A DNA stretch of 64,000 nucleotides from a virus. Below, piece after piece: positions 7,913 through 62,738 of the stretch. Within the stretch, counting starts at the first letter, position 1, and each line of letters starts with the position of its first letter. The translations under genes and the position numbers were made by a program. Below the pieces are notes generated by a model. It had not been told where the DNA came from and searched no databases. It worked only from the letters and a program-made list of their open reading frames with translations. Location of the stretch: IMG/VR virus record IMGVR_UViG_3300045988_183505, positions 1-64,000 of that record; one strand, written 5' to 3'.

Positions 7913-7937
7913 GTTTCGTCTCTCCTTTTCTATGTGC

Positions 7938-8714
7938 TTACTCCTCGATGCGATTCAGAATTTCTTCTGACACTCTGGTGAAAGCAACACCCATGCTGCT
8001 GTTCTTATCATCAACACAGCACTTCTGATTCAGAACTGCCGTTTCACTCTGAGCAGGGCAGAACGGAATCACCGTGTCAAAGGTCAGCTTTTCATATTCT
8101 TCACGCACACTGTCCACGATAGAAGAACTTACATTGGTACGGTTGAACTTGTTCAGCAGGATTCCCAGCACACGCAGATTCTTGTTGGTGCTGTTGTTGA
8201 TAGATGTTACCTTGTTCAGCATCTTTTCCAGTCCGTCAAAACTAAACACGCCGCATTCTACCGGAATCACGATATAATCGCTGGCGTTCATTGCATTGGA
8301 AACGAGCAGGTCAAGCAGTGTTCGGCAGTCAAACAGAATGTAGTCATACTGAGCGTACACATCATTCTGCACAGCACGTTTCAGCACATAATTGCTGTCA
8401 CTGTCATTTGCCATGAAAGTAGTGATACCTGTCAGCATCGGGGAAGACGGTACATAGTCAACGCCACTCTCGCTGTGACGAACAGTGTCTGCATAATCCG
8501 TTTCCATACCTGCGGACAGATTGTAGATTACTTCGGAAATGGTGTACTTACCGTCTTTGATATAGCCCAAAGCACGGCTCGCATTGCCCTGCTGGTCAAG
8601 GTCGATTACCAGAACCTTTTTTCCCTTCTTTGCAAGTCCTCTTGCAATGTTCAGGGTTGCGGTTGTCTTGCCTGCTCCACCTTTCTCAGAGCATACAGAA
8701 ATAATTTTAGCCAT
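7938..8714 (-). CDS. parA: ParA/Soj-family partition ATPase
   Basis: Deviant Walker A SEKGGAGKTT, then VLVIDLDQQGNAS. Confidence 0.9.
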   Translation of the reverse strand: MAKIISVCSEKGGAGKTTATLNIARGLAKKGKKVLVIDLDQQGNASRALGYIKDGKYTISEVIYNLSAGMETDYADTVRHSESGVDYVPSSPMLTGITTFMANDSDSNYVLKRAVQNDVYAQYDYILFDCRTLLDLLVSNAMNASDYIVIPVECGVFSFDGLEKMLNKVTSINNSTNKNLRVLGILLNKFNRTNVSSSIVDSVREEYEKLTFDTVIPFCPAQSETAVLNQKCCVDDKNSSMGVAFTRVSEEILNRIEE

Positions 8715-44369: not shown

Positions 44370-44425
44370 TCGTATTTTTCTCCTTTCCTCTGCTTATCCG
44401 CAGATTTATTACAGTTTATTTTGAC

Positions 44426-44965
44426 TTAATCGCCTGCCTCTGCATTCTGGTAAAAAGTATTCAGCTTATCCTGTTCCGATTCACAAAGCAGTACCTTGCT
44501 TTTGAACTCACAATAGCGAACATTTGAACCATAGCTTTTCCACACAATTTCCGGATTCAAAATATATACATTTGCACTTCCGGATTTCATGATATACAGT
44601 ATCTTTTCTTCTCGCAGCACTCTGACTGCTCTTGTAACGGAAGATTTTGAAACCTGAAAATATTCTGCCAAAAAAGTATAACTGCATACCAAACTATTCA
44701 GTCCGTCCATGCGGTCTGCGATAAACAGGTAAATCTGCATTGCCAGAGCATTCTTTTGCGTCAAAGCAATCAACTTATCTGTTCCATCAAGGTTCGTCTG
44801 TGCAAACCTCTCATAAGGGGAGTGCCGTTCTTTTCTGTGCAGCTTCTCCTGCATTTCAGTAATCTTCTGGAGTGCCTGCTCACGTTCTTCAAAGGTTACA
44901 TCATATTCTGCTGGATTATCTCCTACAGAAAAACTTCCCTTCGCTTCAAGTCCACTATTTTTCAA
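44426..44965 (-). CDS. repL: RepL-like winged-helix replication/maintenance protein
   Basis: TTG start 9 nt after AAAGGAG. NALAMQIYLFIADRMDGLNSLVCSYTFLAEYFQVSKSSVTRAVRVLREEKILYIMKSGSANVYILNPE resembles firmicute RepL. Confidence 0.55.
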   Translation of the reverse strand: MKNSGLEAKGSFSVGDNPAEYDVTFEEREQALQKITEMQEKLHRKERHSPYERFAQTNLDGTDKLIALTQKNALAMQIYLFIADRMDGLNSLVCSYTFLAEYFQVSKSSVTRAVRVLREEKILYIMKSGSANVYILNPEIVWKSYGSNVRYCEFKSKVLLCESEQDKLNTFYQNAEAGD

Positions 44966-44995
44966 GTGACACTGCTCCTTTCTGTATTCAACTCG

Positions 44996-45221
44996 TGACT
45001 ATCGCAATCGTCATTTCTGAATATGTCCTATTCAAATTTGACTATGCCGCAATCATCGTATGACTATATTATAGCACAATAACCCAAGGTGTTCAATCGT
45101 TGTCATGTATGAAAAATCGTTATTTTGTTTCACATTTTTTGTGTGGAACGTACATGGATTGTGGAAAACCTGTAACCGAGTAGTCACGCTGTGACTATAG
45201 CAGTAGTCACCACATGACTAT
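44996..45221. repeat. TGACTAT repeat cluster (5 direct copies plus 2 inverted TAGTCAC) around the repL promoter
   Basis: TGACTAT at 44996, 45039, 45061, 45192 and 45215. TAGTCAC at 45181 and 45204, forming TAGTCAC-gct-GTGACTA. Confidence 0.6.
45068..45096 (-). promoter_or_regulatory. promoter of the repL-like gene (TTGAAC-17 nt-TATAAT, TGc extended -10)
   Basis: Minus strand reads TTGAACaccttgggttattgtgcTATAAT. Confidence 0.7.
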
Positions 45222-45387
45222 TCCCCGACTCATAAAAAAACGTGAATCTGACGCATTTTCGGGACTTAATGTCTGTGAAGGGGTATTTGTCTCTCTTTAT
45301 ATCTTATTACGCCATCAAGCAGCTGAATGGTGTTCGCCTTTGAGCCGTTGCTCGCTTCCTAACGTATTTCCCATTTGCTCACAACGG

Positions 45388-45432
45388 GGACTGCTAGTTT
45401 GCAAGTTGCTATTTCTATCAGCAGTCCTTTTG
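45388..45432 (+). terminator. plus-strand intrinsic terminator (possible 3' end of a small RNA)
   Basis: GGACTGCT-24 nt-AGCAGTCC followed by TTTTGAG. There is no T-tract in the minus orientation. Confidence 0.5.
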
Positions 45433-45741
45433 AGGGACAGAAAAGTGAGAACACCGTGAAGTGAAATAAACTAACGTAAACTGTACAACAAACAGGATTG
45501 CCTCTCCCTATTAGAGTGAAAAAAGCTAATTCTTTTTTCCAGAAATGGGGCTTTATGCAATTTACCCAACTCATCAGCCAACGGCTTTCTCATGCTTTTT
45601 ACTAAATCCATAAGCCGTTGAGACGTTCTGCCGTTCCAATTCCATTCCTGTTTCCAAGTAAGGCAGCTATGCAGTGCCTGTAATTCATCAGACCGTTCCT
45701 GCAATTCAATCAACAATTCTGTATTGCTATGTATTTTATTT

Positions 45742-45790
45742 GCACCAGTTTTTAACTGGTGCATTGCCATAAAGCTTTGCTTTATGGCAA
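45742..45790. other. two adjacent perfect hairpins next to the iterons
   Basis: GCACCAGTT-TTT-AACTGGTGC (45742..45762) and TTGCCATAAAGC-TTT-GCTTTATGGCAA (45764..45790). Confidence 0.6.
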
Positions 45791-45822
45791 ATAAGAGTAA
45801 TACTATAAGCACACTGTATTGA

Positions 45823-45951
45823 ATGGGAATACAGTATTAGCTAATACCATATGGGTAATTCTGTATTAGCTAATAGATTGCTAACTGTACATGGGTAATA
45901 CTATAAGCTAATACTATAAGCATACTGTATATGGGTAATAGATAACTAATA
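45823..45951 (+). repeat. iteron array, four units ATGGG(T)AAT..(C/G)TAATA (candidate oriV)
   Basis: Units start at 45823, 45851, 45891 and 45931 (spacing 28, 40 and 40 bp), for example ATGGGTAATTCTGTATTAGCTAATA. Confidence 0.65.
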
Positions 45952-46203
45952 CTACATAGGTTAAGTATTATAATGGCATTTTTGCCCCAAAGTTTCTTTG
46001 CAAAGTCTGCTATAATTGCAAATCAGTTCTAAGCTATCTACAAGCCGTTTTGAGAGCTTTTTGCTTTTGCCAGCAAGTTTTCTTGCAAGCGTTGTTAGAA
46101 CGCCGCAGAACGAATCCTAATACACTTTCCGCTGGGTTTCCAGCTTAATTCTTCTCACATTCCACTTTCTTCCCGATATGCCTCTTTGCTTTCTAGGCAC
46201 GCT

Positions 46204-46223
46204 TTCTTTTTTGGCGTTACATA
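46204..46223 (+). promoter_or_regulatory. conserved 20-nt leader motif, copy 4 (plus orientation)
   Basis: TTCTTTTTTGGCGTTACATA. The orientation flips together with the direction of transcription. Confidence 0.6.
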
Positions 46224-46383
46224 ACGCAAGTGAAAGGTGATGACAGATTCAGACATTACAGTTTTTGTGATACGGAATACCGACACGAAAGCTTTTCTTC
46301 ACCCAAATGTGAGGTGCAATGTTTGAACAACGCTCCGCAGGCATGAACTGTGCCGGTAAGGAGCAAGACAAGAGAAAGCAGGT

Positions 46384-46716
46384 ATGTGTATGGACTATTT
46401 TGCTCCCGAAATTTACGACAAGAAATTTTTGAAACCGGAAGACCAGAATGTTCTGGAAAAAATGCAGGACATGAGAGACCGTGTTCTGAATGATGATGTA
46501 CTGGAAGATTATCTTTCTGAAACTGTTGATAGTGATATGCCGGTGATGTGCAGTCTTGTCCGTGAGACGTTGAGCAAATTCATCGAATATCTGGTACTGC
46601 AATCAGAATACCGCTTTTGCGATTTCATCATCAGCTGCATCGAAGATTATCCGGAAGCGATGTATCAGGAACTCGTTACTAAGGCAAAAGAAAAGGAAAA
46701 AAGCAATGTACAGTGA
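46384..46716 (+). CDS. hypothetical acidic protein
   Basis: 110-aa ORF and the first gene of the plus arm. Weak RBS. Confidence 0.45.
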   Translation: MCMDYFAPEIYDKKFLKPEDQNVLEKMQDMRDRVLNDDVLEDYLSETVDSDMPVMCSLVRETLSKFIEYLVLQSEYRFCDFIISCIEDYPEAMYQELVTKAKEKEKSNVQ

Positions 46717-46924
46717 CACTCTCCTGATAGTGAGATGGACAAATTTGCACAACGGAGACAGCGGATATGTCAAATCTTTGCACCGCCAAGAGCGATATTT
46801 TGAAAGCACACACGTTGTAGAAGAAGCCAAAGTTTTCAGTGCAAGAGGAATTAAGCAGATGCTTTATCTGCTCCGCTCTTACAATCCAGAAAACGCCTAT
46901 TCTACTGAACCTCTCGGTTATTGA
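46706..46924 (+). CDS. hypothetical small protein
   Basis: 72-aa ORF with AAGGAAAA upstream. Overlaps the previous gene by 11 nt. Confidence 0.4.
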   Translation: MYSDTLLIVRWTNLHNGDSGYVKSLHRQERYFESTHVVEEAKVFSARGIKQMLYLLRSYNPENAYSTEPLGY

Positions 46925-46957
46925 AAAATCATACCGATACAACCAAAAGGAAATTAT

Positions 46958-47416
46958 ATGCAAAAAGAACTCCCGAACGCCATTGAAATCTCCACTAAAG
47001 TGCTGGACGATGCTGTGGCTTTTACAAGCAATTATTTTCAGTATGTGAAAAAGAACAAGCCTCACGTTTATCTCCAGCTGTCGGCACAGGAGCTGTTTGA
47101 TATTAACGCTGAATATCTACCGGACAGCTTCTTTGGTTCTCCGGAGATGCAAGCCTTGAACGATGCAGTTGACGGATTGAACATTGATGAAATCAGTCCA
47201 ATCTTGAATGCGATTTTGCAGGAATGCGGCTTCTATTCGACAGATGATAAGTATCGTGTACCCGTTGATTGCGATGTATGCACTTCTCTGGGTTATATCG
47301 CTCCAGAAAGAAATTACAGTTGGAAGAAAATCGTCCTTTGCGGCACTGCTCTTATCATGGCTGGTGTTACGTCATGTGCGATTGTCGCTATAAAAAGAAA
47401 ATCCAAGAAAGGATAA
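46958..47416 (+). CDS. tail-anchored membrane protein
   Basis: C-terminal TM segment IVLCGTALIMAGVTSCAIVAI followed by KRKSKKG. Confidence 0.5.
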   Translation: MQKELPNAIEISTKVLDDAVAFTSNYFQYVKKNKPHVYLQLSAQELFDINAEYLPDSFFGSPEMQALNDAVDGLNIDEISPILNAILQECGFYSTDDKYRVPVDCDVCTSLGYIAPERNYSWKKIVLCGTALIMAGVTSCAIVAIKRKSKKG

Positions 47417-47422
47417 TACGCT

Positions 47423-49768
47423 ATGGCAAACGACTTGAAAATCACGCCTGACCAGCTGGAAGAACCAATGCTGGACGAAGGCAAAGTGAATGTCAATTTG
47501 ACACTCTATGACAATCAGCTGGAAGAAATGGCAAGTCGTTCTTCTCTGTACCAGCACATCAGTGAAACACAGAATGCAGACGTGTCTTTCGCTGACTTGC
47601 TGGCAGATGACAGCACAACACTTCAAGCTTATACGGATTTTTATCCCGATAAGCCGCCAGAAACAACACTTAGCCTGCAAAGTGATACCTATGGCTGGTG
47701 CGATTTTGTTGTTCCAACGACAGATACTGAAAAGAATCAGCTGAAAGCCGGATTGGAAGATGTAGCAAGCAGGGAACACACAAGTGCCGATGCAATGATG
47801 TATGAAGTCTTCAAGGAAGAATGGATTGCAGACCACATTGATGATGTGACTATGACAGCTACTGAGGCATTATATGAGAACAGCGAAGAATCAATAGGAC
47901 TGACGTTTGAACAGTATGTGCAGGAGTACGGATTTGAAGACGGTTCTGCACCGCCCTCTTTTGCCGAGTTTTTGGAGAACGACTATACGGAAAGACCAGC
48001 AGAGCAGTCACAGCAGATGTCTTCTGCATCTCCGTATATGAGCAACGATTTTATAGAACAGCCGGAAGAAACTGCTCCTGCTGCGGAACAGTCAGATACT
48101 TCATCAACGAACAATGCGTATGAGCAGGAATATATGCTTTTAGACCGTTTGAAGTCTGATTGTGAATATTATCTCAACACAAATGCAACCGAAGAAAACA
48201 ATCATTTGTGGGCTGGCAATCCGGAAGCTCAGATTGAAAAAATGCAGGAGCTTTATGATATGCTCCCTGAAAAACCGGAATGGCTAACACAGGAAGACAT
48301 CAATCAATATGCACAGCAAATGATTCCGGAAAAGGAGGCTGAAATGGCAATTGCTACTGTTCAAGTCAGAAATATGTTGGTAAATGAGGACGGCAATCTC
48401 TTTGCCACGATGGAAGTGAATCGTTCTCGTATGGAAGAGATGCTAAATGATGCCAACTCGCCCTTGCTGAAAGGAAAAGACATTCACGAGCTGGTTTATT
48501 TCAATGATGCAGCCTCTCCTATTTTGGCGGCGGAAATAAATCGTGATGAATCCGTGCAGGTTTCTGCAATCATGAGGGACGGTTACGAGGAAATTGAAGT
48601 ACCCTTGTCTCTTGATGATAATACAATTGCAGAAATCAAAGATGCTGTCAAAGAAAACGTGGAACAGAGCCTTGATGTTTCTGTCCAGCATTTTTTTGAA
48701 ACTGCCGAGCCGAATCATAATTACTCGCAGGAAGAAGTTCACGCTCTTGCCGAAACGGTCGGTAAATTCGTGACAGCATATCAGGAGGAGCAAGAGCCGG
48801 AAAAAGAATTTTCTCTGGAAAAGAATATTCAGCGTATCGAAGAGGGACTTACTTCTCCGGAAATTCTGCCCAGACTTACTGCGGAACTGGACAAGGCGAT
48901 TGATGTTTCGCAACGAACAACCAGTGAAGGCATCTTCCTTCTTCCTGACAGAATCGTGGAGCAGGCGGTAGAAGTTGCACAGCAGATGGAAATGTACACA
49001 AAACCGCTGGGATTTGAAAAAAACGAGATTGTACAGTTTGACGGCGAAGTTATTATGGACACCGAGACTGCCGATGGAGAAACAAAGCCAACCATCAATC
49101 TGGCGTTGTACATGACAGACGATTTTATGGAACAGGCTCTGGATAGAGCTGGCATTTTTGATGTAAACAATCCAGCTTATCAAGCAGACAGCTTTGAAGA
49201 GCTGATGTTCAATGAAGACGGCACATTCAAAACCTATGTAAACGGCTACATTGATATTTCTGAAAACAAAGAAGTAGACTTCCGTCTGTATACCAGTGGC
49301 GATGCTGAAATAAATGTTCCGCTTTCTGATTCTGAAAAACGTGTCGTGCTGGACAAAGCAGAAGCATATATCGAACAGGAAACCGGCATGACATTTGAGC
49401 AGAATATCGAAGACCTGCGGAACAGCTCTAATGACTGGTATGCGGTGAAAATGGATATTGGCGACACAGTAAATGCTTTCTTTGAAAATGGTGGGGCAGA
49501 GCCGACCACTTCAAAAAGTGGCACATTTACAGTAGCAAAAGCTCCGGAAGGGGAAGCTATCCAACTGATTGACAATGACCTGAAAATGTCTATGGCTGAA
49601 ATGACACCGGCAGACAATGGGTACGTTATCCAAAACTCCATTAACGCAGTTATCAAAGAAGGACTGGAAAATGGCTTAAAACGTGCGGACATGGTTGCTT
49701 CTCAGGAAGTCCAAAAAGAGCAGCCTGCACCGGAAAAGAAGCACAAACAGTCTATCGAAAGAGACTAA
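47423..49768 (+). CDS. large acidic protein (781 aa) with internal repeats, ends KKHKQSIERD
   Basis: Rich in D and E. Block YMLLDRLKSDCEYYLN..HLWAGNPEAQIEKMQELYDMLPEKPEWLT. Repeated ..EIEVPLSLDD.. and ..EINVPLSDSE.. modules. Confidence 0.65.
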   Translation: MANDLKITPDQLEEPMLDEGKVNVNLTLYDNQLEEMASRSSLYQHISETQNADVSFADLLADDSTTLQAYTDFYPDKPPETTLSLQSDTYGWCDFVVPTTDTEKNQLKAGLEDVASREHTSADAMMYEVFKEEWIADHIDDVTMTATEALYENSEESIGLTFEQYVQEYGFEDGSAPPSFAEFLENDYTERPAEQSQQMSSASPYMSNDFIEQPEETAPAAEQSDTSSTNNAYEQEYMLLDRLKSDCEYYLNTNATEENNHLWAGNPEAQIEKMQELYDMLPEKPEWLTQEDINQYAQQMIPEKEAEMAIATVQVRNMLVNEDGNLFATMEVNRSRMEEMLNDANSPLLKGKDIHELVYFNDAASPILAAEINRDESVQVSAIMRDGYEEIEVPLSLDDNTIAEIKDAVKENVEQSLDVSVQHFFETAEPNHNYSQEEVHALAETVGKFVTAYQEEQEPEKEFSLEKNIQRIEEGLTSPEILPRLTAELDKAIDVSQRTTSEGIFLLPDRIVEQAVEVAQQMEMYTKPLGFEKNEIVQFDGEVIMDTETADGETKPTINLALYMTDDFMEQALDRAGIFDVNNPAYQADSFEELMFNEDGTFKTYVNGYIDISENKEVDFRLYTSGDAEINVPLSDSEKRVVLDKAEAYIEQETGMTFEQNIEDLRNSSNDWYAVKMDIGDTVNAFFENGGAEPTTSKSGTFTVAKAPEGEAIQLIDNDLKMSMAEMTPADNGYVIQNSINAVIKEGLENGLKRADMVASQEVQKEQPAPEKKHKQSIERD

Positions 49769-51846: not shown

Positions 51847-52097
51847 TGTGGGAAACCACTAAGCTGGTTGCTCTTTTTCCTACGCTCCGGAAACTTTTTC
51901 ACTCATGTTACGTTTCCAGAGCTAGGCTTGAACGCACCGCCGGAAGGTGCTTAATGATAAAAACGGTGTAATCCGATGGACAGTCCGTTATACGTTTGAA
52001 AGTATCCGTTGTCGGGCTGACAATAGGTACACCGAAGTAGCAGGCATTGTCAATATCGGCAGTGCCTGTTTTCTTTTACCTTGAAAGGAAGATTACA
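51847..52097 (+). promoter_or_regulatory. about 250-nt structured 5' leader (candidate riboswitch, attenuator or small RNA) of unknown class
   Basis: GTGG-GAAA-CCAC (51848..51859). Long hairpin 51879..51894 with 51912..51926. GCACC-N7-GGTGC (51934..51950). The terminator comes last. Confidence 0.55.
52039..52077 (+). terminator. intrinsic terminator inside the leader, just before the RBS of the 52098 gene
   Basis: CAGGCA-16 nt-TGCCTG followed by TTTTCTTTT. Confidence 0.6.
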
Positions 52098-53309
52098 ATG
52101 GAAAATTTACAGCAAAGCACCTATGAAAATGCTGGTCGCTTGATGAATCTTTATGATTACATGGCTGCTATCGGTGATGACAACTATGAAAATCTGTACG
52201 ATGATATTACCCAAGATGTCGATGTGAGATACAGAAGTGATGACAGTGATTATCAGGAATGGGTTGACCAGCTGGCAAAAGAGCATGATTTGTTCTCGAA
52301 AGAAAGCATGGAGAAAATCAATGCTCGATTTGAACCTCAGATTTTTGTAGCAGACGATTCTGCCAAAATCGCTCCTGTTGTATATGATAACCAATACGAC
52401 ACCTATCTGACGTTGGACAAATTTGCAGATGAACTTGAAAGCTATGCAGATATGGACATTGAAGGGGAGAATGAGGTTTATCAAGAAGGTTACTTTTCTC
52501 CTTATTACATGGACGAACCGCCAACAAAAAAAGTTTCCTTTTCCGGCACTTTGGAAACAAGTATGCGTGAACTGGTTCAGGACTTTTATCAGTGGCTGGG
52601 TGAAATTGACGATGAAATCGCACAGCATCTGGAGCAGGTGAGTGAAGATAAGAATATCCCAGCAAGTGAGGTTGCTGTCCTTGCAATCAGCCAGTCTGAC
52701 CGATTGATGACAGCAAACGACTATCTCGTTGCATCGTCTCCAGATATTTATTCCATGTATGAAGATATTGCTGATTACGGATTCAATTACGATGTGAATT
52801 TAGATAACAGCCTGCTCCAGAGCAAGATGCCAGAAATCGAAAAAATTATTCAGGAACATGGTGGCGTTTCCAATCGTACACAGGACGAACTGGAAGACCG
52901 CTTTGAACCACAGGTGCTTGTACGAGACGGCGGCGAAGCAATTGTTACTCCGCTGGTGTACGACAATCAGGAAAATAAGTATATTACAGTCAGCAGTGTG
53001 GCTGATACGTTGAAGGAGATGCTGATTCCTGATGTTCATGGTGAAATCACTGCTGAAAATGGTGAATCTATTCCGTTCAATGCACACATGGACGTAGAAA
53101 GCGAATCTAAACGTATCCTTGCAGACAGCTACAAGCAAAATGCAACATACTTGAAGGAGGCACTTGTCGAAGTAAGAGAGGCATACAAAGATGATATGCC
53201 GAAGCTGAAAGCTACTGTTGACCATTTCAAAGAAAAAATGTCCATTCTGTATGATAAGCGGCAATCAGAAGTGCAGCCCAAAAAAGATTCACAGAACATA
53301 GAGCGATAA
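52098..53309 (+). CDS. highly acidic protein with an internal tandem duplication, ends KKDSQNIER
   Basis: The ATG at 52098 follows GAAAGGAAG. Repeats are ARFEPQIFVADDSAKIAPVVYDNQYDTYLT and DRFEPQVLVRDGGEAIVTPLVYDNQENKYIT. Confidence 0.6.
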   Translation: MENLQQSTYENAGRLMNLYDYMAAIGDDNYENLYDDITQDVDVRYRSDDSDYQEWVDQLAKEHDLFSKESMEKINARFEPQIFVADDSAKIAPVVYDNQYDTYLTLDKFADELESYADMDIEGENEVYQEGYFSPYYMDEPPTKKVSFSGTLETSMRELVQDFYQWLGEIDDEIAQHLEQVSEDKNIPASEVAVLAISQSDRLMTANDYLVASSPDIYSMYEDIADYGFNYDVNLDNSLLQSKMPEIEKIIQEHGGVSNRTQDELEDRFEPQVLVRDGGEAIVTPLVYDNQENKYITVSSVADTLKEMLIPDVHGEITAENGESIPFNAHMDVESESKRILADSYKQNATYLKEALVEVREAYKDDMPKLKATVDHFKEKMSILYDKRQSEVQPKKDSQNIER

Positions 53310-53372: not shown

Positions 53373-54239
53373 ATGGGTTTTGCATCAAAAGAACAAGTTG
53401 ACACAATTTCAGCACTAACTTCGCAGCTATATCGCTACTACTCTACCGCCTATTATGAAGGAGTGTACAGCGGCAAATTAGATAAAGCCATTGAACACGA
53501 CTTGATTCCATGGCTTTTGGAATTGAAAAAAGAAGTGGAAGCAGAAGGTTGCCACTTAGATTCGATGGGGGTTTATTTCAGAAATGACAGACCTGTCTTA
53601 CAGTATGGCAGAACTGTCGTATGCAGTTATGACGCTATGGACAATGCCACTATGCGAAAGCTAAAGCTTCCGCTTACCGATGTTAAATTGGTTCGGAAAG
53701 AAGTAGAGGCTGACCTTTATCAGATGATAATGGACTTAAAATCTGGTATGACTGTGGAACAGTTTGCAGAGAAGTATCGTGGAAATGATATATACCACGG
53801 CGTTCCAGAACTGGAGCAGCACATACTGGAGCAGATAAGTTCCGGCAACAGTGATGACGTAACACTTAATGCTATAATCGCCAATGGAAAATCAGTTTCT
53901 GTTATTAGAGCAAATCTTCAATCAGACCTTGCCGTAGCAAAATTTCTATCTCAAAACTACCTTGTTCGTGTGGGATATAACGATGGTAAGATTGTTCTGG
54001 GAGATTCTGTTATAGACCGTTATGCCATTCGGGTTCGCTGTATAAAAAGTGACGCAAATGCAAGTTTCAAAAAAGACCCACTCAAAATCAAATGTTTTGA
54101 GGTGGATTTGAAATTTGCAAATGGGAACAGAAGTTTACTGACATTTAGACCGAGTGATAGCCCTTTTTATGTTCCGCAAATAGAAAAGGTTTTAACTGAA
54201 AATGCAATTGGAGAGGAGAAGAAACAACGTGGACGGTAA
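53373..54239 (+). CDS. hypothetical protein, ends EEKKQRGR
   Basis: 288-aa ORF. Confidence 0.55.
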   Translation: MGFASKEQVDTISALTSQLYRYYSTAYYEGVYSGKLDKAIEHDLIPWLLELKKEVEAEGCHLDSMGVYFRNDRPVLQYGRTVVCSYDAMDNATMRKLKLPLTDVKLVRKEVEADLYQMIMDLKSGMTVEQFAEKYRGNDIYHGVPELEQHILEQISSGNSDDVTLNAIIANGKSVSVIRANLQSDLAVAKFLSQNYLVRVGYNDGKIVLGDSVIDRYAIRVRCIKSDANASFKKDPLKIKCFEVDLKFANGNRSLLTFRPSDSPFYVPQIEKVLTENAIGEEKKQRGR

Positions 54240-55317
54240 TCAATCTATCAATCAGATGTTAGCAATCCACAAGGAGCAGGAACTGGAAATTCAGAACATG
54301 GATTTTCAGAACCTGTCCGACCATGACAAACAAGTTCTTGCTGAATATGCAGAAACCAAAGTGTTGCTGCATAATACAGCAAATGTAATTCAATTTGTCC
54401 AAAACTCTGCACAGGTTATTACAGACGAAAATGGACAAAAGCAGGCAGTAGGTATGCTGGATAAGGAATCTTATGCGGAGCTTTCTGTATTTGCTACCAT
54501 GAATCAAAATCCGGAACTTCTGGAAATGGCGAAGCAAAGTCAGATAACCGAACTGCCGCTTTCTGAAAAAGCTGCCCTCTGGGAAAAAGGGGAGAACACG
54601 CAGCAAGAAATTTTGCTTCACACGCCAGCTACTGTTGATAATTTTGTAGAAGCTGGATACGACAGTTTCTATGTTGGAGATGGCACTGTTGAAGTGCTGG
54701 ACGCAACACTTGCAGATGCGATGGAGCTGATGAAAGATTATGGTATTGACCAATCTGATGTGTATAACAGTACACGGGAACAATTCCGACTGATGCAGGA
54801 ACAGCAGTCACTTGTGAACTATGAATACACCGAAAAAGAGCAGGAACTTTCTGAGGAAAATGAATATTTACAGCGGCAGATGGAATTACAGGAAATTGCA
54901 AAACAAGCCGTTGAAGAAAACTACTCCAAAGATGATAAAGACGGTTTGCAGGAACGGTTCTCTCTCACTACAGAAGAAGTTGCTGCCGTTGCTGTTGCAA
55001 TGCAGACTTACGAATGGATAAAGCTTGCAGAAGCATGGGAACAGGAGAACCTTGCCGAGAAAACAAAAGAACAAGAGCCTGCTGAAATCGTAGAAAGCTC
55101 TGATGGGTATGTCATGGCAATGAGCAAAATGACACCGCAGAATGAGAAACAGCTGCAATCCAGAATTGAGAACGGCAATGAGGTAATTCATCATGAAACA
55201 GCAAGGGAAACAACAACAGACCCTGCACAGGTGAAACCGAATGTAAAGCTGGAAACAGCTCAAAACAAAGGCACACAAGAAAAGAAAGCAAGACAGGTAG
55301 ATTATGACAGGGATTAA
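54202..55317 (+). CDS. acidic hypothetical protein, ends KKARQVDYDRD (start uncertain)
   Basis: 371-aa ORF. Alternative starts are a GTG at 54229 after GGAGAGGAG and an ATG at 54256. Confidence 0.55.
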   Translation: MQLERRRNNVDGNQSINQMLAIHKEQELEIQNMDFQNLSDHDKQVLAEYAETKVLLHNTANVIQFVQNSAQVITDENGQKQAVGMLDKESYAELSVFATMNQNPELLEMAKQSQITELPLSEKAALWEKGENTQQEILLHTPATVDNFVEAGYDSFYVGDGTVEVLDATLADAMELMKDYGIDQSDVYNSTREQFRLMQEQQSLVNYEYTEKEQELSEENEYLQRQMELQEIAKQAVEENYSKDDKDGLQERFSLTTEEVAAVAVAMQTYEWIKLAEAWEQENLAEKTKEQEPAEIVESSDGYVMAMSKMTPQNEKQLQSRIENGNEVIHHETARETTTDPAQVKPNVKLETAQNKGTQEKKARQVDYDRD

Positions 55318-55441: not shown

Positions 55442-55825
55442 ATGAATAGCTTATATAACATTTTTCAAAATGAAAAAGAGCGGAATCCGGATATGACCGT
55501 GTACTACAACAAGCAGACGAACTCTATCTCTTATCGGAATGAAGAAGGCACTTTGACAGCATTGTTTCGTGGAGAGAATGAGTATTTCTACTTCAAATCT
55601 CCAAACAAAAAGCCGGAAGAAATGCAGACCAATATCGGAGATATGATTCTTAACACCTATGGTGAAAAGAATGGCATTATCCGTGGCAGAATGCAAAATG
55701 AATTTTTCGATACGCCGGAACGATTTAAGCGTCTGGCAAAAGATTATCAGAACTGCCGAGATGAAATCGGCATTGATGACAACCCTAAGAAATCAACAAA
55801 GCGTAAAAACGTAGAAAGGGATTAA
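55442..55825 (+). CDS. hypothetical protein, ends KKSTKRKNVERD
   Basis: 127-aa ORF with RBS GAAAGGA. Confidence 0.55.
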   Translation: MNSLYNIFQNEKERNPDMTVYYNKQTNSISYRNEEGTLTALFRGENEYFYFKSPNKKPEEMQTNIGDMILNTYGEKNGIIRGRMQNEFFDTPERFKRLAKDYQNCRDEIGIDDNPKKSTKRKNVERD

Positions 55826-56122: not shown

Positions 56123-59100
56123 ATGTCAAAGCTAAGAGATGTTGGTAATCAGGAAGAAATGATGGCAAAAGACAAAGCCGAGGAACGCCGCATATTCAGA
56201 GAAATGCTTTCTGGTATGACAACGGCAGAACGTAATTCTCTGATTACAAAAGATAAGCTGTTCCCCCCGATTCACTATCAGGCAGAATCTGAAAAAGGCA
56301 AAGACAGAACCGTGCTGTATTTCATGAAAAAAGTACGTGATGCTCTGCCGCCCAGACCTAATATTCCCAACATTCCGTATGGTGCGTCAGCCGAAGCAAA
56401 AGAACAAATCATTCGTACTGCACAGGACAAATATATTGATATGATAAGCGGATATTGTGACCTTATCCAAGAACTCGATTCGCTTGAAGACTGTCGCAAT
56501 TTTCCTAATCGTGTAAAAGAAGAAGGCGTGTCTACCACTCTCCCTAAATCAAGGGACACATATAAATTGACAAAAGCAATCTGCTGTGCCAATGACACTG
56601 TTTCTTTGCGTAGGGAAAGCGAAAGAAAGCAGTTCTGCTTCACTCCAGAAGAAAAAGCACTCGCCGACTATCAGATTCTCACTTATAACGGAGAAAATGT
56701 AAAGGTCAAGCAAAATTACCGGAATGAAGATTATTTGCATATTTCAGGATTCGGGTATCGGCGTAGCATATTCAATGCTCCCCCTGAATTGCTGAATATG
56801 GATAATTGGAAAGAAGGTACTTCCTTTGCGTTCAACATAAAAAACAGTGAGATTATCGCTGTCAATTCTGAATCACAAGAAGCTGTACGAGAAAAAATCA
56901 TCGAATACGAATTTGCTAAAGCAGCCGCAGTGAAGGAAGCTAAAAAAGGGACTGGAACAAAACGCCTCATTCCTCCCCCTCTGAAACATATCCGTGAATC
57001 AGCGACAGACTATCGTGACAGCAAAGATGCAACACAGGAAGATTTGATGGCTACATTCCAATTGAAAGCAGTTGCATTCGGCAATTCCATGCCGAACGAT
57101 GAACGGCAAACACACGCAAATTTTTGCTATGACGCATTCAAAGACCTTGCCAAAGCGATGAATGTTGCTGATGAAGATATTGGCTTAGGCAATAGAATCG
57201 GAATGCAGTACGGAGCAAATGGCAGAGGTGGTAAAGGAGCGGCAGCTGCTCACTACTCTATTTATGCACACAACATCAACCTGACCCGAATGAGTGGTGC
57301 AGGAAGTCTGGCACATGAATGGGGACACGCTCTTGACCATTTTATCGGGGAACGCATCGAAACATTTGAAATTACCGCTTCGGAAGGAGCAGCAGACCAC
57401 TTCGATAGCAATAATCCGATGTGTGGTGTAATGCGTGCTATCAAATACAAAGAAGTTGATGGCAAAACCGTTCCTACAGATTACCTGAACGCAGCGAATG
57501 AGCTTGATGCCACTTATTCCAAAACCGGTAATGGTTACTGGAACAGCGATGTCGAACTTTTTGCAAGAGCCTTTTCCTGCTATGTCAAGGATAAGCTGTC
57601 TCCTGACAATTCTGATTATCTTTGCGGACACACTGACTGGTATGCTCAGGGAGAACAAGGCAAGGTTGCTGTAATGCCTCTTGGTGAAGAACGTCAGCAT
57701 ATCAATGAAGCGATTGATAAAATGCTGGAGACCTTAAAAGAAAGAGGAATCCTGCACGAACGTCCGGAACAGGATAAATCAAAAAGCTTCACCCCTCTGG
57801 AAGTTGAAGATGAGCCGAGGAAAAAGAGAGAACCGTCACATAAATCTGCATCTTCTACCCCGAAAGAAAAACCGGAGCAGTCATCAGAGGACAGCAAACA
57901 GCTTACTTTAGACGATATTGAAGGGCAAGAACCAGAAGCTCCCAGCACTGAGGCTGAGAACAATCTCCAGCAAGAGTTGGAAGAACTAAAATCAGTTCTG
58001 CAAGCGACAAATGATGCTAAAGAGCTGGCAATTGGTGATGTTGTTCGCATGGACGGCTACAAGGCATTGGATAACAAATTCAACCTTGTAGAAATTCCTA
58101 GTGCCTACGGTGTGGTTACAGAAGTGAGTGATGACCATATCTCCTTTGATACTTACAAGGATAAAGATGCAAAGGACTTTACTGGGAAAGAGACTATGTT
58201 CAGCACTGACGGCAATCCGTGGCAGCAACAGCTTGCCAGCCGTGGCTTTGAACTTGTTTCAAAAGCAGAACCGGTAAAAGAGGTTGAACAACAGGTCACA
58301 AAAGAAACAGAGACAGCAGAACCGGAAAAGAAAGAAGAACCAGTTATTACTCCCCCACCAACGGCAGAAGATACGAAAGGAGAAAATAGCGAGATGAAGG
58401 GAACGTTCCAGCATAATACAAATTTGGATATGCTGAAAGATACGCTGGAAAAGCATGAACCTTTTGTGGCGATTGCAGTAAGCACAACAGGAATTGACCG
58501 TAAAGATTTTTCAGGGCATGAGCCGATTCGTGTTGCAGTTGCTCGATACGAATATGACGAATCCGTAGCTGCTTATAAGCCAAGCCTTTCTTTTGATGAA
58601 CAGGTACTTGCAAATAAAGAAGCAATTCAGAATGCGGTCGATAACATAGAACACTACGATGTTTTCAAGAATGCAGGACTGGTTTTTCCGGAATACCGTG
58701 CGAATGCACTAAGCAAGGAAGATTTTCAGCAAAAGTTCAACAGCTTCATGCAGGCAATCAGTGATGATAAACCTCTTGTTATCGAAAATGGTAGCAGAGG
58801 ATTTGCAGCACAATATCTGGACAAAATCGGCTGTGCAGATACCCTGCATACTCTGGCAGAGGAACATCGTGTCATTCAGCAGACCGGTATCAATCAGGAA
58901 TATTTGCACACGATTAAGGGTAGCACATTGGAAGCCCTTCGTAATAAGATGAACAATACAGAAATTGAAGGCAAAATCATCGGTGCAGACAATCGTGTAC
59001 AGGTCATGGCTGAATGTGCTATTCAGTATGGCAGAGAGCAAAATGTACTGGAAAGCGATGTTCTCTCCCACCTCATGCAGGAAGACATTGAACGGAGAGA

Positions 59101-60766
59101 CGATTATTCCAGAAAAGGCGTAGAAAAATACCAGAACAGTGATATTGAAGGGAAATTTGCTACGCTTATTGAAATGGGTGCATTGAACGCAGATGCGGTC
59201 ATGGACAGAGACGGCGATTGCGACATCAACAAACTGTATGATGCTATGGAATCCAGTAAGGGCGTTATTGTGATGCAGGTAGCCACGACCGGCTTTGACC
59301 ATAATAAGCCAAGCCCTCAGCTGACAGGAGAACCGATTCAGATTACTGCTGCTGCCTACCCAATTGTCGATGGAAAAATCAATCCGGACGCTCCGGAAGA
59401 CAGCATTTCCTTTAACATTCAGGCATCTCCTCGTGCTGTAACCACGGCTATGCAACGTGCCGAACATGGTGGCTTTGACACATTCAAGGACGCAAAAATC
59501 AACACTTCTGAATATCTCAGCGGAAAAGGTGTTGTTTTGCAGGAAGATGCGGCGAAGAAAATCAACGAGTTTTTCCAGAAACATGATGATTACACCTTGA
59601 TTACCAATGGCAGTGCAAAAGGCTCTGATTACAGCTTTTCGCAGACTGCAATTTCCAACTTAGGAAATCTGCCGATGACACAGCAGAACTATGTGGATTT
59701 TACCCAAGCGGTAAAAGAATACAGCTATCAGCAGCTCCATAGTGATGCGATTCCGGAAAACGTAGCACTTGACCCGAACAATATTCAGAAATTTTCTCTG
59801 GGCGATATTGCAAAGAGCAATGGCGTACTGAATGTAGACGGAACACAGTACAAAGTTTACTTCATGGCACAGGTTGTAAGTAATGTAGCTGAACAGCATC
59901 GTGAGCTGACACAGCCAGAACAGGTACACACGCAAGAATCCCCTGCACAGGAAATTCCTACCGTACAGGAAACAGCCAAAGAAGTTGAACCGAACTTGTC
60001 TTCTGCTCCAGAAGCTCCTCAGAACACGCAGGAAGCCACACAGCCAACTTCTGAACCGCCACAGGTAAATCAGCCTGCTCCGGAAAAGCAGCCCTCTCCT
60101 GCCGCTGAAACACCTTTTATGGGCGTTCCAGAAAACACACCAGCAGCTGTACACGAACTGCCGACTGAAAAGCAGACTGATATTTCCAAGGACGACATTA
60201 CAGATGCACTTGATTCTGTCGCATTAGAGGGACAGGGTGTCGCTTATGACGAAGTAAGAGACGATGCAGAAAATGCGGAAAAATCTTCTCAAACAGCTCC
60301 GGAAATGCAAAGCAGTGGTTTTACCAATTCCGATGTCAGCAAGCTGATAGATGTTATTGCGGTTCAGAACACCGTACTCACCAAACAAAGTGAAGCATTG
60401 ATGGCACAAACCAATAAACTGGTAGAAGTAATGGAGACACAGAATCAAATGATACGTTCCATCATCGAGTTACAGCACAACAGCATGGGCATGGATAGAA
60501 CCCCTGTGCAGGAAGCCCCAGCCCCAATACATGAAGCGACTTCCGCAGACATTCCTGCTGCAAAAACTCCACAGGAAAAGCTTCGTGCTGTACAGGACGT
60601 GATAAGAGATGTTCGTAAGGAAATAAATTCTCCTTCCGGTTCTGTTGTTGACAAGGACATGAGCATCGTTTTGTCAAAGCTGTCTAATATGGCAAATAAT
60701 CTGGACAAGCAGGAACAGCAGCATAAAAAGTCTTCACCGCAGAAGGGCGTGGAGCAAGGAGCATAA
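56123..60766 (+). CDS. large polyvalent protein (1547 aa): zincin HEXXH domain, two DnaQ-like exonuclease-fold modules lacking the acidic catalytic residues, a P/Q/E-rich linker and a C-terminal coiled coil
   Basis: AGSLAHEWGHALDH (HEWGH at 57314..57328). FVAIAVSTTGIDRKD..EPIRVAVARY and VIVMQVATTGFDHNK..EPIQITAAAY parallel Exo I vvfDlETTGl..IiEiaa, with D and E replaced. Confidence 0.75.
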   Translation: MSKLRDVGNQEEMMAKDKAEERRIFREMLSGMTTAERNSLITKDKLFPPIHYQAESEKGKDRTVLYFMKKVRDALPPRPNIPNIPYGASAEAKEQIIRTAQDKYIDMISGYCDLIQELDSLEDCRNFPNRVKEEGVSTTLPKSRDTYKLTKAICCANDTVSLRRESERKQFCFTPEEKALADYQILTYNGENVKVKQNYRNEDYLHISGFGYRRSIFNAPPELLNMDNWKEGTSFAFNIKNSEIIAVNSESQEAVREKIIEYEFAKAAAVKEAKKGTGTKRLIPPPLKHIRESATDYRDSKDATQEDLMATFQLKAVAFGNSMPNDERQTHANFCYDAFKDLAKAMNVADEDIGLGNRIGMQYGANGRGGKGAAAAHYSIYAHNINLTRMSGAGSLAHEWGHALDHFIGERIETFEITASEGAADHFDSNNPMCGVMRAIKYKEVDGKTVPTDYLNAANELDATYSKTGNGYWNSDVELFARAFSCYVKDKLSPDNSDYLCGHTDWYAQGEQGKVAVMPLGEERQHINEAIDKMLETLKERGILHERPEQDKSKSFTPLEVEDEPRKKREPSHKSASSTPKEKPEQSSEDSKQLTLDDIEGQEPEAPSTEAENNLQQELEELKSVLQATNDAKELAIGDVVRMDGYKALDNKFNLVEIPSAYGVVTEVSDDHISFDTYKDKDAKDFTGKETMFSTDGNPWQQQLASRGFELVSKAEPVKEVEQQVTKETETAEPEKKEEPVITPPPTAEDTKGENSEMKGTFQHNTNLDMLKDTLEKHEPFVAIAVSTTGIDRKDFSGHEPIRVAVARYEYDESVAAYKPSLSFDEQVLANKEAIQNAVDNIEHYDVFKNAGLVFPEYRANALSKEDFQQKFNSFMQAISDDKPLVIENGSRGFAAQYLDKIGCADTLHTLAEEHRVIQQTGINQEYLHTIKGSTLEALRNKMNNTEIEGKIIGADNRVQVMAECAIQYGREQNVLESDVLSHLMQEDIERRDDYSRKGVEKYQNSDIEGKFATLIEMGALNADAVMDRDGDCDINKLYDAMESSKGVIVMQVATTGFDHNKPSPQLTGEPIQITAAAYPIVDGKINPDAPEDSISFNIQASPRAVTTAMQRAEHGGFDTFKDAKINTSEYLSGKGVVLQEDAAKKINEFFQKHDDYTLITNGSAKGSDYSFSQTAISNLGNLPMTQQNYVDFTQAVKEYSYQQLHSDAIPENVALDPNNIQKFSLGDIAKSNGVLNVDGTQYKVYFMAQVVSNVAEQHRELTQPEQVHTQESPAQEIPTVQETAKEVEPNLSSAPEAPQNTQEATQPTSEPPQVNQPAPEKQPSPAAETPFMGVPENTPAAVHELPTEKQTDISKDDITDALDSVALEGQGVAYDEVRDDAENAEKSSQTAPEMQSSGFTNSDVSKLIDVIAVQNTVLTKQSEALMAQTNKLVEVMETQNQMIRSIIELQHNSMGMDRTPVQEAPAPIHEATSADIPAAKTPQEKLRAVQDVIRDVRKEINSPSGSVVDKDMSIVLSKLSNMANNLDKQEQQHKKSSPQKGVEQGA

Positions 60767-60769
60767 ATA

Positions 60770-61687
60770 ATGGGCAAAAGTTTACAACTAAGCTATGACA
60801 GAGATGCACTGTGCAAGGCAATCCCTATAGAAGATGTGATTCAGCTGTATGCAGGAATCCGGACAGACCGGCGAGGCAACATTTCATGCCCATCTCCGAA
60901 CCATGCTGATAAGCACCCTTCCACTAAAATTTTTCATGATTCCAACACTTGCTTTTGTTTCAGCTGCAAAAAAAGTTATGACCCTGTTTCACTTGCATTT
61001 GACTACAATCCGAATTTAAGCACTCCGGAATTGTATAAGAAGCTAACCGAAGATTTCGGCATACCACTGGAATCCGTCAGCAATATTCAGCAGGTGCGAG
61101 AAGTGGAACAGGCGAACCGTGAAAAGCGGTTTATTGACGTATTTCCACTCAGCGTTTCTGAGTGCAAAAGAATCGGTCTTGATGGTGTTCTCGGTGCAGT
61201 GAAGCCAGATGAAAACAGAGAAGATGACGATAAACCGCCAGAAGTTCAGGAACGCTTTCCGTCTTTGATGGAACTCTGGAAAACAGAGAAAGCAGCCGTG
61301 GAATCTCTTTTAATTGCGAAGTGCGATGATACTTTGGACGACTTGAAAAGTGAATTGGACTGGAAAACAGAACACTTCCTAAGTGTCTATAAGGACTTTA
61401 CTCCGCACAGTGCAGATTTTCAGGAAGCACAAAGAATCCATGAGGCGGTAGAACGCTATAAATCGACCGACACTCCTGTCAAAGTGAATATGATGTCAAA
61501 GCATGATGACGCATTATATACAAAATACGCCTTTTTCAAGGACAGTGTTGATGATTTGAAACAGCTCCGTGCTGAAATGTCCAGTGTCCTCAGAATCAAG
61601 GAGAAAGTGTTGAGCCAGCAAAAGGAACGGCAAAAGGAGCAGTTCAAGGGATTTCATAAAAAGAAAACAACCGTAGAAAGGGACTAA
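60770..61687 (+). CDS. CHC2 (DnaG-type) zinc-finger protein without a TOPRIM or primase catalytic domain, ends KKKTTVERD
   Basis: CPSPNHADKHPSTKIFHDSNTCFCFSCKKSYDPVSL matches CPFH....PS......f.CFgCg..GD. Confidence 0.65.
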   Translation: MGKSLQLSYDRDALCKAIPIEDVIQLYAGIRTDRRGNISCPSPNHADKHPSTKIFHDSNTCFCFSCKKSYDPVSLAFDYNPNLSTPELYKKLTEDFGIPLESVSNIQQVREVEQANREKRFIDVFPLSVSECKRIGLDGVLGAVKPDENREDDDKPPEVQERFPSLMELWKTEKAAVESLLIAKCDDTLDDLKSELDWKTEHFLSVYKDFTPHSADFQEAQRIHEAVERYKSTDTPVKVNMMSKHDDALYTKYAFFKDSVDDLKQLRAEMSSVLRIKEKVLSQQKERQKEQFKGFHKKKTTVERD

Positions 61688-61691
61688 AAAC

Positions 61692-62738
61692 ATGAGTGGC
61701 TATGCAATAGACAGCAATGGCAATGCTGTTGCTATCAATAATGCAAAGCAAATACAGATGGTACAACCTTTGGAAAATCGCAGGAAGGAGCTGGTGAAAT
61801 ATGTTTATCAGCTCACTCCCCTGCTCCAGAGTGCAGGGTTGAATGTGAATACAAATCAGTTCACTTTGTTATTTTCTCCAAACGGCATACTCGAAAAAAT
61901 TGTGCTGTTTGCCAAAATACCATTACAGTCTAACAGCCCTTTAGTAAAGCAGGCTTTTGAAGCAAGTACCCATTATGATTATCCGTTTCAAAGCAATCAG
62001 CAGAAGGCTTTTCTAAAAAGCATTTATTGCATTCAGGTAAACTACAAACCAACATGGTGGTATGTTAGTGCCGAAGTTATTACGTTAGAACGGAATATCA
62101 TAGACGGCATTTGGATTTCTGCCAAAAAAGAAGCCTCTATCCCTTATTATGCGTTTCAATCGAAATACCAGCTGAAAAGTGTCGAACAGCCAATCCAGTC
62201 GCCGCAGACGTTCTGGTGTATATCTCTTACCGGAGAATCTTTACCAGACAACGTGAACGACCTGTTCCCACTCATGGCACAGATTCCAAGTAAAAGTACG
62301 ATACTTGCAGATGCAGTATCAAAAGTAAATCAGAACATCGGAATTTCTGCAAAGGATTCCAATAGCAATCAAATCTCCAGCTGTTTAAGGCTGATAAATT
62401 CACCTCTGAATGGCAAGATATATCCTTTGTACAAGGAACTGAAACAATTTATTTCCAGAACATATCCGTATGCAGATGATGAACACGGTGCATTTAACAT
62501 CTCTTACAAAGATGATGCAATCCGTTTCCAGTTGCAGGACGGACGAAAAGCAGAGATATTCGTCAAGGGTAATGCTTCATCTCCCACCTTTGTCTCTGGT
62601 GGATATACCGTAAAGGGCATATCTGCTATGGAAGAAGCAATCGCCAATGGCAACTGCTTCCGTAAGACAACATGGTTTGATGCTAAAGCAAGCCCTTATA
62701 TCCTGCGTAAACCACGAAAAGAAAATAAACCGAAGTAA
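61692..62738 (+). CDS. hypothetical protein, ends LRKPRKENKPK
   Basis: 348-aa ORF. Its start lies 4 nt after the upstream stop. Confidence 0.55.
   Translation: MSGYAIDSNGNAVAINNAKQIQMVQPLENRRKELVKYVYQLTPLLQSAGLNVNTNQFTLLFSPNGILEKIVLFAKIPLQSNSPLVKQAFEASTHYDYPFQSNQQKAFLKSIYCIQVNYKPTWWYVSAEVITLERNIIDGIWISAKKEASIPYYAFQSKYQLKSVEQPIQSPQTFWCISLTGESLPDNVNDLFPLMAQIPSKSTILADAVSKVNQNIGISAKDSNSNQISSCLRLINSPLNGKIYPLYKELKQFISRTYPYADDEHGAFNISYKDDAIRFQLQDGRKAEIFVKGNASSPTFVSGGYTVKGISAMEEAIANGNCFRKTTWFDAKASPYILRKPRKENKPK

Follow-up and report, generated by a model that had tools for sequence, protein, structure and literature searches.

Fusion of a zincin/LPD1 polyvalent scaffold to a pair of predicted DnaQ-like modules with degenerate active sites in a conjugative element

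The stretch of 64,000 nucleotides (nt) analysed here, hereafter the window, covers positions 1 to 64,000 of the IMG/VR virus record IMGVR_UViG_3300045988_183505 and represents a conjugative, plasmid-like element that encodes VirD4- and VirB4-type ATPases, a MobV relaxase, TopoIII, ParA/ParB and a RepL-like protein. An open reading frame (ORF) on its plus strand (56123..60766), with an ATG start and an AAAGGAG Shine-Dalgarno sequence 7 nt upstream, encodes a protein of 1547 amino acids (aa). This ORF is a gene fusion between a zincin/LPD1 polyvalent scaffold and a protein with twin pseudo-exonuclease modules. The twin modules are an unannotated, inactive branch of a known fold, and they are new; the predicted structure makes a DnaQ/DEDD-like fold highly probable for both of them, and the residues found at their active sites indicate that both have very likely been catalytically inactivated. 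Non-catalytic binding tied to the priming or establishment of transferred DNA is, tentatively, the most likely role of the pair. The protein combines several unrelated domains (zincin/LPD1, a beta domain, two DnaQ-fold modules and a coiled coil) and is carried by a conjugative element, as expected of a polyvalent protein. Its layout is as follows, where pLDDT denotes the predicted local distance difference test of AlphaFold2 (AF2) models:

56123..56947, plus strand: N-terminal helical and beta region of the scaffold family (aa 1-275), conserved across 30 aligned homologues
57002..57745, plus strand: zincin-like metallopeptidase (aa 294-541), called from Pfam LPD1, NCBIfam CLCA_X, PHROG and the alignment of homologues
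57314-57328, plus strand: HEWGH, the zincin motif
57554-57556, plus strand: E478, candidate third ligand, invariant in homologues and inside the LPD1 model
57755..58027, plus strand: acidic disordered linker (aa 545-635), net charge -11, AF2 pLDDT <50 at aa 551-554 and 562-608
58040..58192, plus strand: small beta domain (aa 640-690), part of the N-half family, AF2 strands at aa 640-678 with pLDDT 65-81
58376..58396, plus strand: putative relic internal start (AAAGGAG, 11-nt spacer and ATG, giving M758 of MKGTF...), at the exact start of standalone homologues
58403..59047, plus strand: pseudo-exonuclease module 1 (aa 761-975), predicted DnaQ-like fold, from AF2, Foldseek and alignments
59048..59209, plus strand: helical inter-module linker (aa 976-1029) with a conserved GKxKYxN...K motif, from AF2 and alignment
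59210..59917, plus strand: pseudo-exonuclease module 2 (aa 1030-1265), homologous to module 1 by BLASTP, hhalign and AF2
59918..60322, plus strand: Pro/Gln/Glu-rich disordered acidic region (aa 1266-1400), net charge -21, AF2 pLDDT <50 from segment residue 506
60323..60763, plus strand: C-terminal helical, coiled-coil-like region with the family motif DVxxLxxxIxxQ...EQ, from the family alignment

The motifs from which the initial annotation had read a zincin and two inactivated nucleases lie where it had placed them, namely HEWGH at aa 398, IAVSTTGI at aa 784, VIENGSRGF at aa 886, MQVATTGF at aa 1051 and LITNGSAKG at aa 1159. The split points that it had suggested for the two modules (58460 and 59263) proved misplaced, as they fall on the Exo I-like motifs and the real module boundaries are at about 58403 and 59210.

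Modules 1 and 2 are true internal repeats, sharing 28% identity by BLASTP (E 5e-9) and aligning with a probability of 98.9% in a profile-profile comparison with hhalign (E 1.2e-17 over 154 columns). The AF2 model of aa 761-1300 reached a pLDDT of 86.9 and a predicted template modelling (TM) score of 0.79, and showed the same order of secondary structure elements in both modules (beta1-beta2-beta3-alpha-beta4-alpha-beta5-alpha), which we take to fit the DnaQ topology. All 22 matches obtained with Foldseek in the PDB at E <= 1e-3 were DEDD exonucleases, comprising PARN, RNase T, 3'hExo, the S. thermophilus DnaQ domain, TREX1 homologues and ExoI. Matches up to E 1e-2 added Pol III epsilon, Cap18 and ERI2, as well as the catalytically dead DEDD domains of Exuperantia, Maelstrom, ESRP1 and Pol alpha (5l7z, 9nhc_F, 7wrn and 5iud/5exr). 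The top matches had E values from 3e-5 to 1e-2 and target TM scores of 0.45-0.67, and those found in BFVD were phage and giant-virus DEDDh/DnaQ proteins. Thus, the predicted structure has the RNase H-like alpha/beta fold with DnaQ topology that defines the DEDD superfamily, in agreement with the tandem DnaQ-like folds proposed from motif reading.

The closest structural relatives of the modules, both in the PDB and in BFVD, are the DEDDh exonucleases (Pol III epsilon, RNase T, TREX1/2, 3'hExo, PARN and ExoI). They have in common the predicted fold, the order of strands and helices, the TTG turn that follows beta1, the GI loop and, beyond beta5, the D-T/S element. However, all five catalytic residues are replaced in both modules, which also differ by their additional helices, their long helical linker and their coiled-coil tail. 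Residues were placed in register by a local hhalign alignment to E. coli DnaQ that was colinear over ~170 columns but statistically weak, the global mode being meaningless. In this register, module 1 shows the substitutions D to V and E to S in Exo I, D to A in Exo II, and H to G and D to V in Exo III, and module 2 shows D to Q and E to A in Exo I, D to S in Exo II, and loss of both H and D of Exo III, with a Lys adjacent. The loss of the Exo I acids claimed in the initial annotation is therefore found as V-x-S and Q-x-A at positions aligned colinearly, though not with statistical significance, and its Exo II-like blocks map to the beta4/alphaB element, which is where genuine DEDDh enzymes have theirs. 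Neither module carries any of the signatures of the DEDDh group (Exo I D-x-E, the Exo II Asp and Exo III H/Y-x4-D).

The same losses extend through the family. When a profile merged from the modules (A2) was used to search 1.84 billion representative proteins, 146 were retrieved at E <= 1e-3; about 70 of these contain two modules. From 134 of the 146 proteins, 221 domain copies were aligned to the module hidden Markov model (HMM). The Exo I Asp position is occupied by Q, H, A, V or S, with D in only 17 of the 221 copies, and the Exo I Glu position by A, S or G, with E in only 18. At the Exo II Asp position, A, S, T, C or V is found and never D (197 aligned copies). Among 150 copies, the Exo III His position holds G, S or T, with H in 9, the Exo III Asp position holds C, V, I or A and never D, and the residue directly before the latter is R in 72 and K in 70 (142 together). 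The copies that keep D-x-E form one distant clade (P0104, P0109, P0111-P0115 and others; locus L006) with the motif YDVETTG and a helical insertion of ~120-180 aa after beta3, which is also devoid of the Exo II and Exo III acids. Its members carry in addition a strongly conserved C-terminal domain (...GNDRRYVDxDKMFExNDNFEITLEGEKEPIKTWEELEAKIKALN...), and no match to the clade was found in Pfam or the PDB.

As judged from the alignment, residues flanking the old groove are under purifying selection. Family-wide conservation is seen at T26, T27 and G28 (TTG), P39, A76, D87 and F89 ([YF]DxF), G93 and I94 (GI[DN]), Y99, F138, D162, E169 and Y170 (KEY), and R/K213, and the motifs kept beside the groove are TTG after beta1, the [YF]DxF...GI[DN]xxxY loop and D-x-T-Q/KEY after beta5. 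Acidic catalytic residues at shifted positions, which the initial annotation had named as a finding that would overturn its reading, were looked for in the alignment. There was no sign of them, since the conserved acids D87 and D162 fall, in this weak alignment, on E61 and D129 of epsilon, which are conserved, non-catalytic positions. It is accordingly very improbable that the modules are still active nucleases, or some other enzyme with a non-canonical site. Such activity would fit the DVETTG retained by the distant sister clade and the three or four acidic positions conserved family-wide (D87, D95, D162 and E169), and Maelstrom, whose domain derives from a DEDD nuclease, does cleave RNA with a non-canonical site. 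Nevertheless, besides the non-catalytic register of D87 and D162, the aspartates of Exo II and Exo III are absent from the whole census and a basic residue sits in the metal region.

The C-terminal half of the protein, from M758 onwards, is normally a separate gene. The search with aa 761-1300 retrieved only 15 proteins, 12 of which stand alone and measure 685-931 aa, and the standalone homologues mostly start with MKGxF, corresponding to M758-K-G-T-F. The AAAGGAG, 11-nt spacer and ATG at 58376-58396 are in frame and coincide precisely with the start of the standalone gene; a stop codon upstream of M758 has clearly disappeared, and translation starting internally at M758 may still yield the C-terminal half alone. 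The prevalence of standalone homologues and the presence of a ribosome-binding site and ATG exactly at the junction are also what would be expected if an assembly error or a frameshift had artificially united two genes. This explanation was rejected and is considered extremely improbable, because an independent metagenome contig (L011; OHBM01000312.1, 39.7 kb) is 99-100% identical across the junction, the same fusion occurs as a 1778-aa ORF in a Lachnoclostridium metagenome-assembled genome (L009), and at least five further representatives of 1365-2216 aa join LPD1 to two modules (P0022, P0046, P0047, P0062 and P0073).

The N-terminal half does contain a zincin-like metallopeptidase module, as assigned from motifs and HMMs. 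Pfam LPD1 (PF18796) matches aa 466-541 with E 9.2e-16 and 58 bits against a cut-off of 27, and PHROG polyvalent families of large phage proteins match aa 252-541. In the alignment of 30 homologues, H398, E399, H402 and E478 are invariant and make up the HEXXH + Glu signature of gluzincins, which upholds the earlier description of a polyvalent-type protein with a zincin. NCBIfam CLCA_X (NF041907), a family of bacterial relatives of the CLCA zincin domain, covers aa 294-538, nearly its whole model, with E 3.5e-34. However, the match scores 118.4 bits, well short of the curated cut-off of 260 bits, so that the module is best described, at the level of sequence, as a relative of CLCA_X and not as a member. 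In the AF2 model of aa 1-760 (pLDDT 75.7), ordered regions at aa 40-275 and in the zincin (aa 300-545) are followed by the disordered acidic linker and the beta domain at aa 640-690. The pLDDT is mostly >89 at aa 41-270, with exceptions at ~aa 81-90 and 131-150, and is higher in a helix at ~aa 609-630 than in the rest of the acidic linker. The zincin call rests on motifs and HMMs since Foldseek with this 760-aa model found nothing significant in the PDB, returning only OB-like fragments (E > 0.07) without recovering the zincin fold; there was likewise no significant PDB fold match for the aa 1-275 region.

A search with aa 1-760 retrieved 334 proteins at E <= 0.001, and LPD1 was present in 119 of the best 120 of them, the exception being a fragment (P0015). 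Many of these relatives are standalone proteins of ~582 aa, and others carry C- or N-terminal cargo such as DUF3991-Toprim-AAA_28, MuF_C, YodL or ArdC-N. The scaffold is joined to DUF3991-Toprim-AAA in P0156 and, according to precomputed Pfam lists, likewise in P0157, P0159 and P0160. Homologues of the N-half at other loci align up to ~aa 716. Because its homologues occur alone or with varied cargo, the N-half (aa 1 to ~716) is regarded, on these domain assignments, as a common polyvalent-protein scaffold with interchangeable cargo.

The twin-module gene belongs to a four-gene cassette. In tblastn comparisons of 32 related loci, the order is fixed, with a gene for a 127-aa protein followed by the twin-module gene and by genes for a 305-aa and a 348-aa protein. 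In the window, the partners of the fused gene are:

55442..55825, plus strand: cassette gene 1, conserved 127-aa protein, with tblastn matches in 23 related loci, immediately upstream of standalone homologues of the twin-module protein
60770..61687, plus strand: cassette gene 3, 305 aa, with a DnaG-type CHC2 zinc-binding domain (Pfam Zn_ribbon_DnaG) and a helical C-terminal part, without Toprim
61692..62738, plus strand: cassette gene 4, conserved 348-aa protein, with tblastn matches in 22 loci

The 305-aa gene lies downstream in 25 of the 32 loci; the seven without it are four cut contigs, a locus (L028) whose sequence extends only ~750 nt downstream, and two distant relatives. The profile of its family (A7) matches the DnaG zinc-binding domains of 1d0q (E 2.5e-9) and 2au3 (E 1.1e-8), and C40, H45, C63 and C66 are invariant. 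When a Toprim domain was sought in the orthologues, it was detected only in the Lachnoclostridium locus (L009; 10686-12284), inserted between the zinc-binding and helical parts. Thus, in most elements the "exonuclease" and the "primase" of the cassette are both predicted to lack their catalytic parts. A 305-aa-type gene also follows the single-module relative P0096, and the GKxKYxN...K motif of the inter-module linker is found upstream of the module in single-module relatives. No family match was obtained for the 127-aa protein in Pfam, NCBIfam or PHROG, nor for the 348-aa protein in Pfam, NCBIfam, PHROG or PDB profiles. The makeup of the cassette is stable across 25-40% identity. Three genome contigs with named hosts (uncultured Clostridia, Lachnoclostridium and Oscillospiraceae) and three IMG/VR contigs carry it, and the cassette is a feature of conjugative elements from gut Clostridia.

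These observations can be brought together in a working model. Zincin modules have been proposed to autoprocess polyvalent proteins, and conjugative polyvalent proteins to aid the restart of replication on incoming single-stranded DNA (Iyer et al., 2017; PMC5512222). Following the former proposal, the N-half zincin would probably process or release its cargo, the C-half from M758, which would consist of the two tandem DnaQ/DEDDh-fold modules with their helical linker, the disordered acidic stretch and the coiled-coil tail. The dead pair would then act as a non-catalytic binding unit that holds a 3' end or primer terminus, or docks onto a replication partner. RNase T and the TREX enzymes work as dimers, and the pair could be an intramolecular mimic of such a dimer. 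Together with the neighbour bearing the DnaG zinc-binding domain and the two other cassette proteins, it would ensure that the incoming single strand becomes established in the recipient, through priming and complementary-strand synthesis, end protection, or both.

Several results weigh against this model. As for the fold, it rests on one AF2 model and on moderate Foldseek matches (root-mean-square deviation 4-8 Å), and sequence profiles do not link the modules to DEDD enzymes. Neither Pfam at E <= 1, including RNase_T (PF00929), nor phmmer and three profile searches against the PDB gave a significant match, in which the modules again differ from genuine DEDDh exonucleases, and hhalign against E. 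coli DnaQ (L005) reached only a non-significant local E of 0.04-0.1. Of the checks recommended with the initial annotation, structure prediction with fold search thus favoured the DnaQ-like fold and the Pfam/PDB sequence profiles did not. As for the function, the zinc-binding neighbour is without a catalytic primase domain in most loci, so the cassette would be unable to synthesise primers by itself. Moreover, the modules have an isoelectric point (pI) of ~5 and a net charge of -11 each, and the whole protein a net charge of -82; such acidity suits protein binding or DNA mimicry equally well or better than DNA binding, and extensive binding of the DNA backbone by the modules is not obvious.

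Because the modules are acidic and the cassette usually lacks a catalytic primase, two other roles have to be weighed against priming and establishment, each of which is considered unlikely, although far from negligible. According to one of them, the protein would be an anti-defence decoy or sponge that sequesters nucleotide second messengers, caps DNA ends against host nucleases, or mimics DNA or protein targets of restriction, of the cyclic oligonucleotide-based antiphage signalling system (CBASS) or of comparable systems in the recipient. A protein of polyvalent type, encoded in a region that at related loci abounds in conflict-type domains (PARP, ArdC-N, GGDEF, HD-YodL and DHH), would be a suitable candidate, its charge of -82 recalls the similarly strong acidity of the DNA-mimic anti-restriction proteins ArdA and Ocr, and the loss of catalysis with retention of the groove suits the sequestration of a ligand. 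However, the Pfam, PHROG and PDB searches revealed no similarity to known sponges or anti-defence proteins. The tight and ancient linkage to the gene for the DnaG zinc-binding domain is not that of a variable, defence-countering locus, and effectors engaged in an arms race are usually shuffled, in contrast with the stable makeup of the cassette. Since the C-half is normally standalone and locked to the DnaG zinc-binding gene, and since the zincin scaffold to which it is fused carries a Toprim primase in sibling proteins, a role in priming and DNA establishment is favoured at least as strongly as that of a decoy.

The other possibility, to which we assign a similarly low likelihood, is that the dead folds bind no nucleic acid and are pure protein adaptors or replisome mimics, docking on the host polymerase, clamp, single-stranded DNA-binding protein or primase to recruit or block it, with oligomerisation driven by the coiled-coil tail. 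The acidity of the modules, the coiled-coil tail and long linkers of the family, and the acidic tails in which single-module relatives end (for example DDDIGRP and DDGIDR) are consistent with this role, as is a cassette whose "exonuclease" and "primase" both lack catalytic parts, as would mimics acting in trans on host enzymes. Nevertheless, the best-conserved residues (TTG, GI[DN] and R/K213) line the former substrate groove, as far as the weak DnaQ alignment tells, and define no obvious separate surface. Binding coupled to priming or establishment of the transferred strand remains our preferred, if tentative, interpretation.

The dead DEDD domains of Exuperantia (EXO-like), Maelstrom, ESRP1 (N-terminal) and Pol alpha (exonuclease-like) offer a close parallel to the twin modules, having the same fold with a degenerate active site. 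These DEDD-derived domains act by binding RNA, DNA or proteins. They are, however, eukaryotic, single-copy and found in unrelated contexts, whereas the module family is bacterial, borne by mobile elements, tandemly duplicated and tied to a gene for a DnaG zinc-binding domain. On the scaffold side, the protein resembles the polyvalent zincin metallopeptidase hub proteins of Iyer et al. (2017; PMC5512222; for example zincin-LPD1 with DUF3991-Toprim, TraC1-like) in its HEXXH + Glu signature, LPD1, disordered linkers and conjugative setting, but differs from them in its cargo, a DnaQ-fold pseudo-enzyme pair that no Pfam LPD model covers. DnaQ is not mentioned in the main text of that study, and in our literature searches we came across no earlier account of a dead DnaQ domain within conjugative polyvalent proteins.

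The conjugative elements found in gut Clostridia are major vehicles of gene transfer and, to our knowledge, almost nothing is known about how their DNA becomes established in a new host. The present analysis defines a small family of 146 representative clusters among 1.84 billion, whose modules are covered by no Pfam, NCBIfam or PHROG model, and adds a new type of cargo to the repertoire of polyvalent proteins. In this family, the fold of a proofreading exonuclease appears to have been turned to a non-catalytic use, and its gene is a constant member of a cassette that also encodes a primase-derived zinc-binding protein, an example of mobile elements using pseudo-enzymes derived from replication proteins. 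The analysis also provides concrete constructs and partners for testing.

Other features of the protein and of the element deserve mention. Matches of the C-terminal region in the PDB were limited to weak ones to coiled-coil proteins. Many relatives, including P0003, P0100, P0118, P0135 and P0153, possess between the modules and the coiled coil a short peptide, LYSDxxGxxxDVVxGxVxKVGExxIPHVSEA, that is missing from the window protein. Two public metagenome contigs (L011 and L012) are 99-100% identical to the window at 52.4-62.7 kb, indicating that the element has been sampled independently; megablast against plasmid and phage collections gave no match. GC and AT skew flip sign at ~46 kb, where transcription diverges (~44400-47400 of the window). 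This skew switch, together with the RepL-like and ParA/ParB genes, suggests a plasmid-type replicon in which the operon of the fused gene starts beside the replication region. The genes concerned, and further large or polyvalent-type genes of the window, are:

44426-44965, minus strand: RepL-like gene
7013-8714, minus strand: ParA/ParB
47423-49768, plus strand: 781-aa polyvalent-type protein with LPD11
8772-10571, minus strand: 599-aa polyvalent-type protein with DUF4942 and a Dam-like adenine methyltransferase
26579-32320, minus strand: 1913-aa ORF within the transfer-gene block, without Pfam match

A C-terminal tail is shared by many of the proteins encoded on the cassette strand. It is Lys-rich from -12 to -6 and has a hydrophobic residue at -3, followed by [E/D]-R and an optional final D or P, as in ...KHKQSIERD, ...KRKNVERD, ...KKKTTVERD, ...QVDYDRD and ...SQNIER. 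The tail also occurs in loci L001-L034, and the genes of the window that bear it are:

47423-49768, plus strand: tail-bearing gene (the LPD11 protein above)
52047-53309, plus strand: tail-bearing gene
54202-55317, plus strand: tail-bearing gene
55442-55825, plus strand: tail-bearing gene (cassette gene 1)
60770-61687, plus strand: tail-bearing gene (cassette gene 3)

The tail may be an export tag, marking substrates of type IV secretion, or a processing tag; a literature search brought up no paper devoted to a signal of this kind in Gram-positive systems. A more speculative scheme, which we hold to be distinctly improbable, would have the cassette proteins translocated into the recipient to commandeer its replication enzymes, the zinc-binding domain providing template recognition in trans for the host primase, the dead pair holding the nascent 3' end for the host polymerase, and the K-rich ...[IVY]-[ED]-R-(D) tail acting as the export signal of a Gram-positive type IV secretion system. 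The fused protein itself ends in GVEQGA, without the tail, which is found in its single-module relatives (DDGIDR, DDGYDR and DEPER). In the window, the tail occurs in 5 of 13 plus-strand genes versus 0 of 33 minus-strand genes (Fisher p 9e-4) and, when the related loci are included, in 58 of 452 distinct ORFs versus 3.3 expected (binomial p 4e-52), 57 of these 58 lying on the cassette strand.

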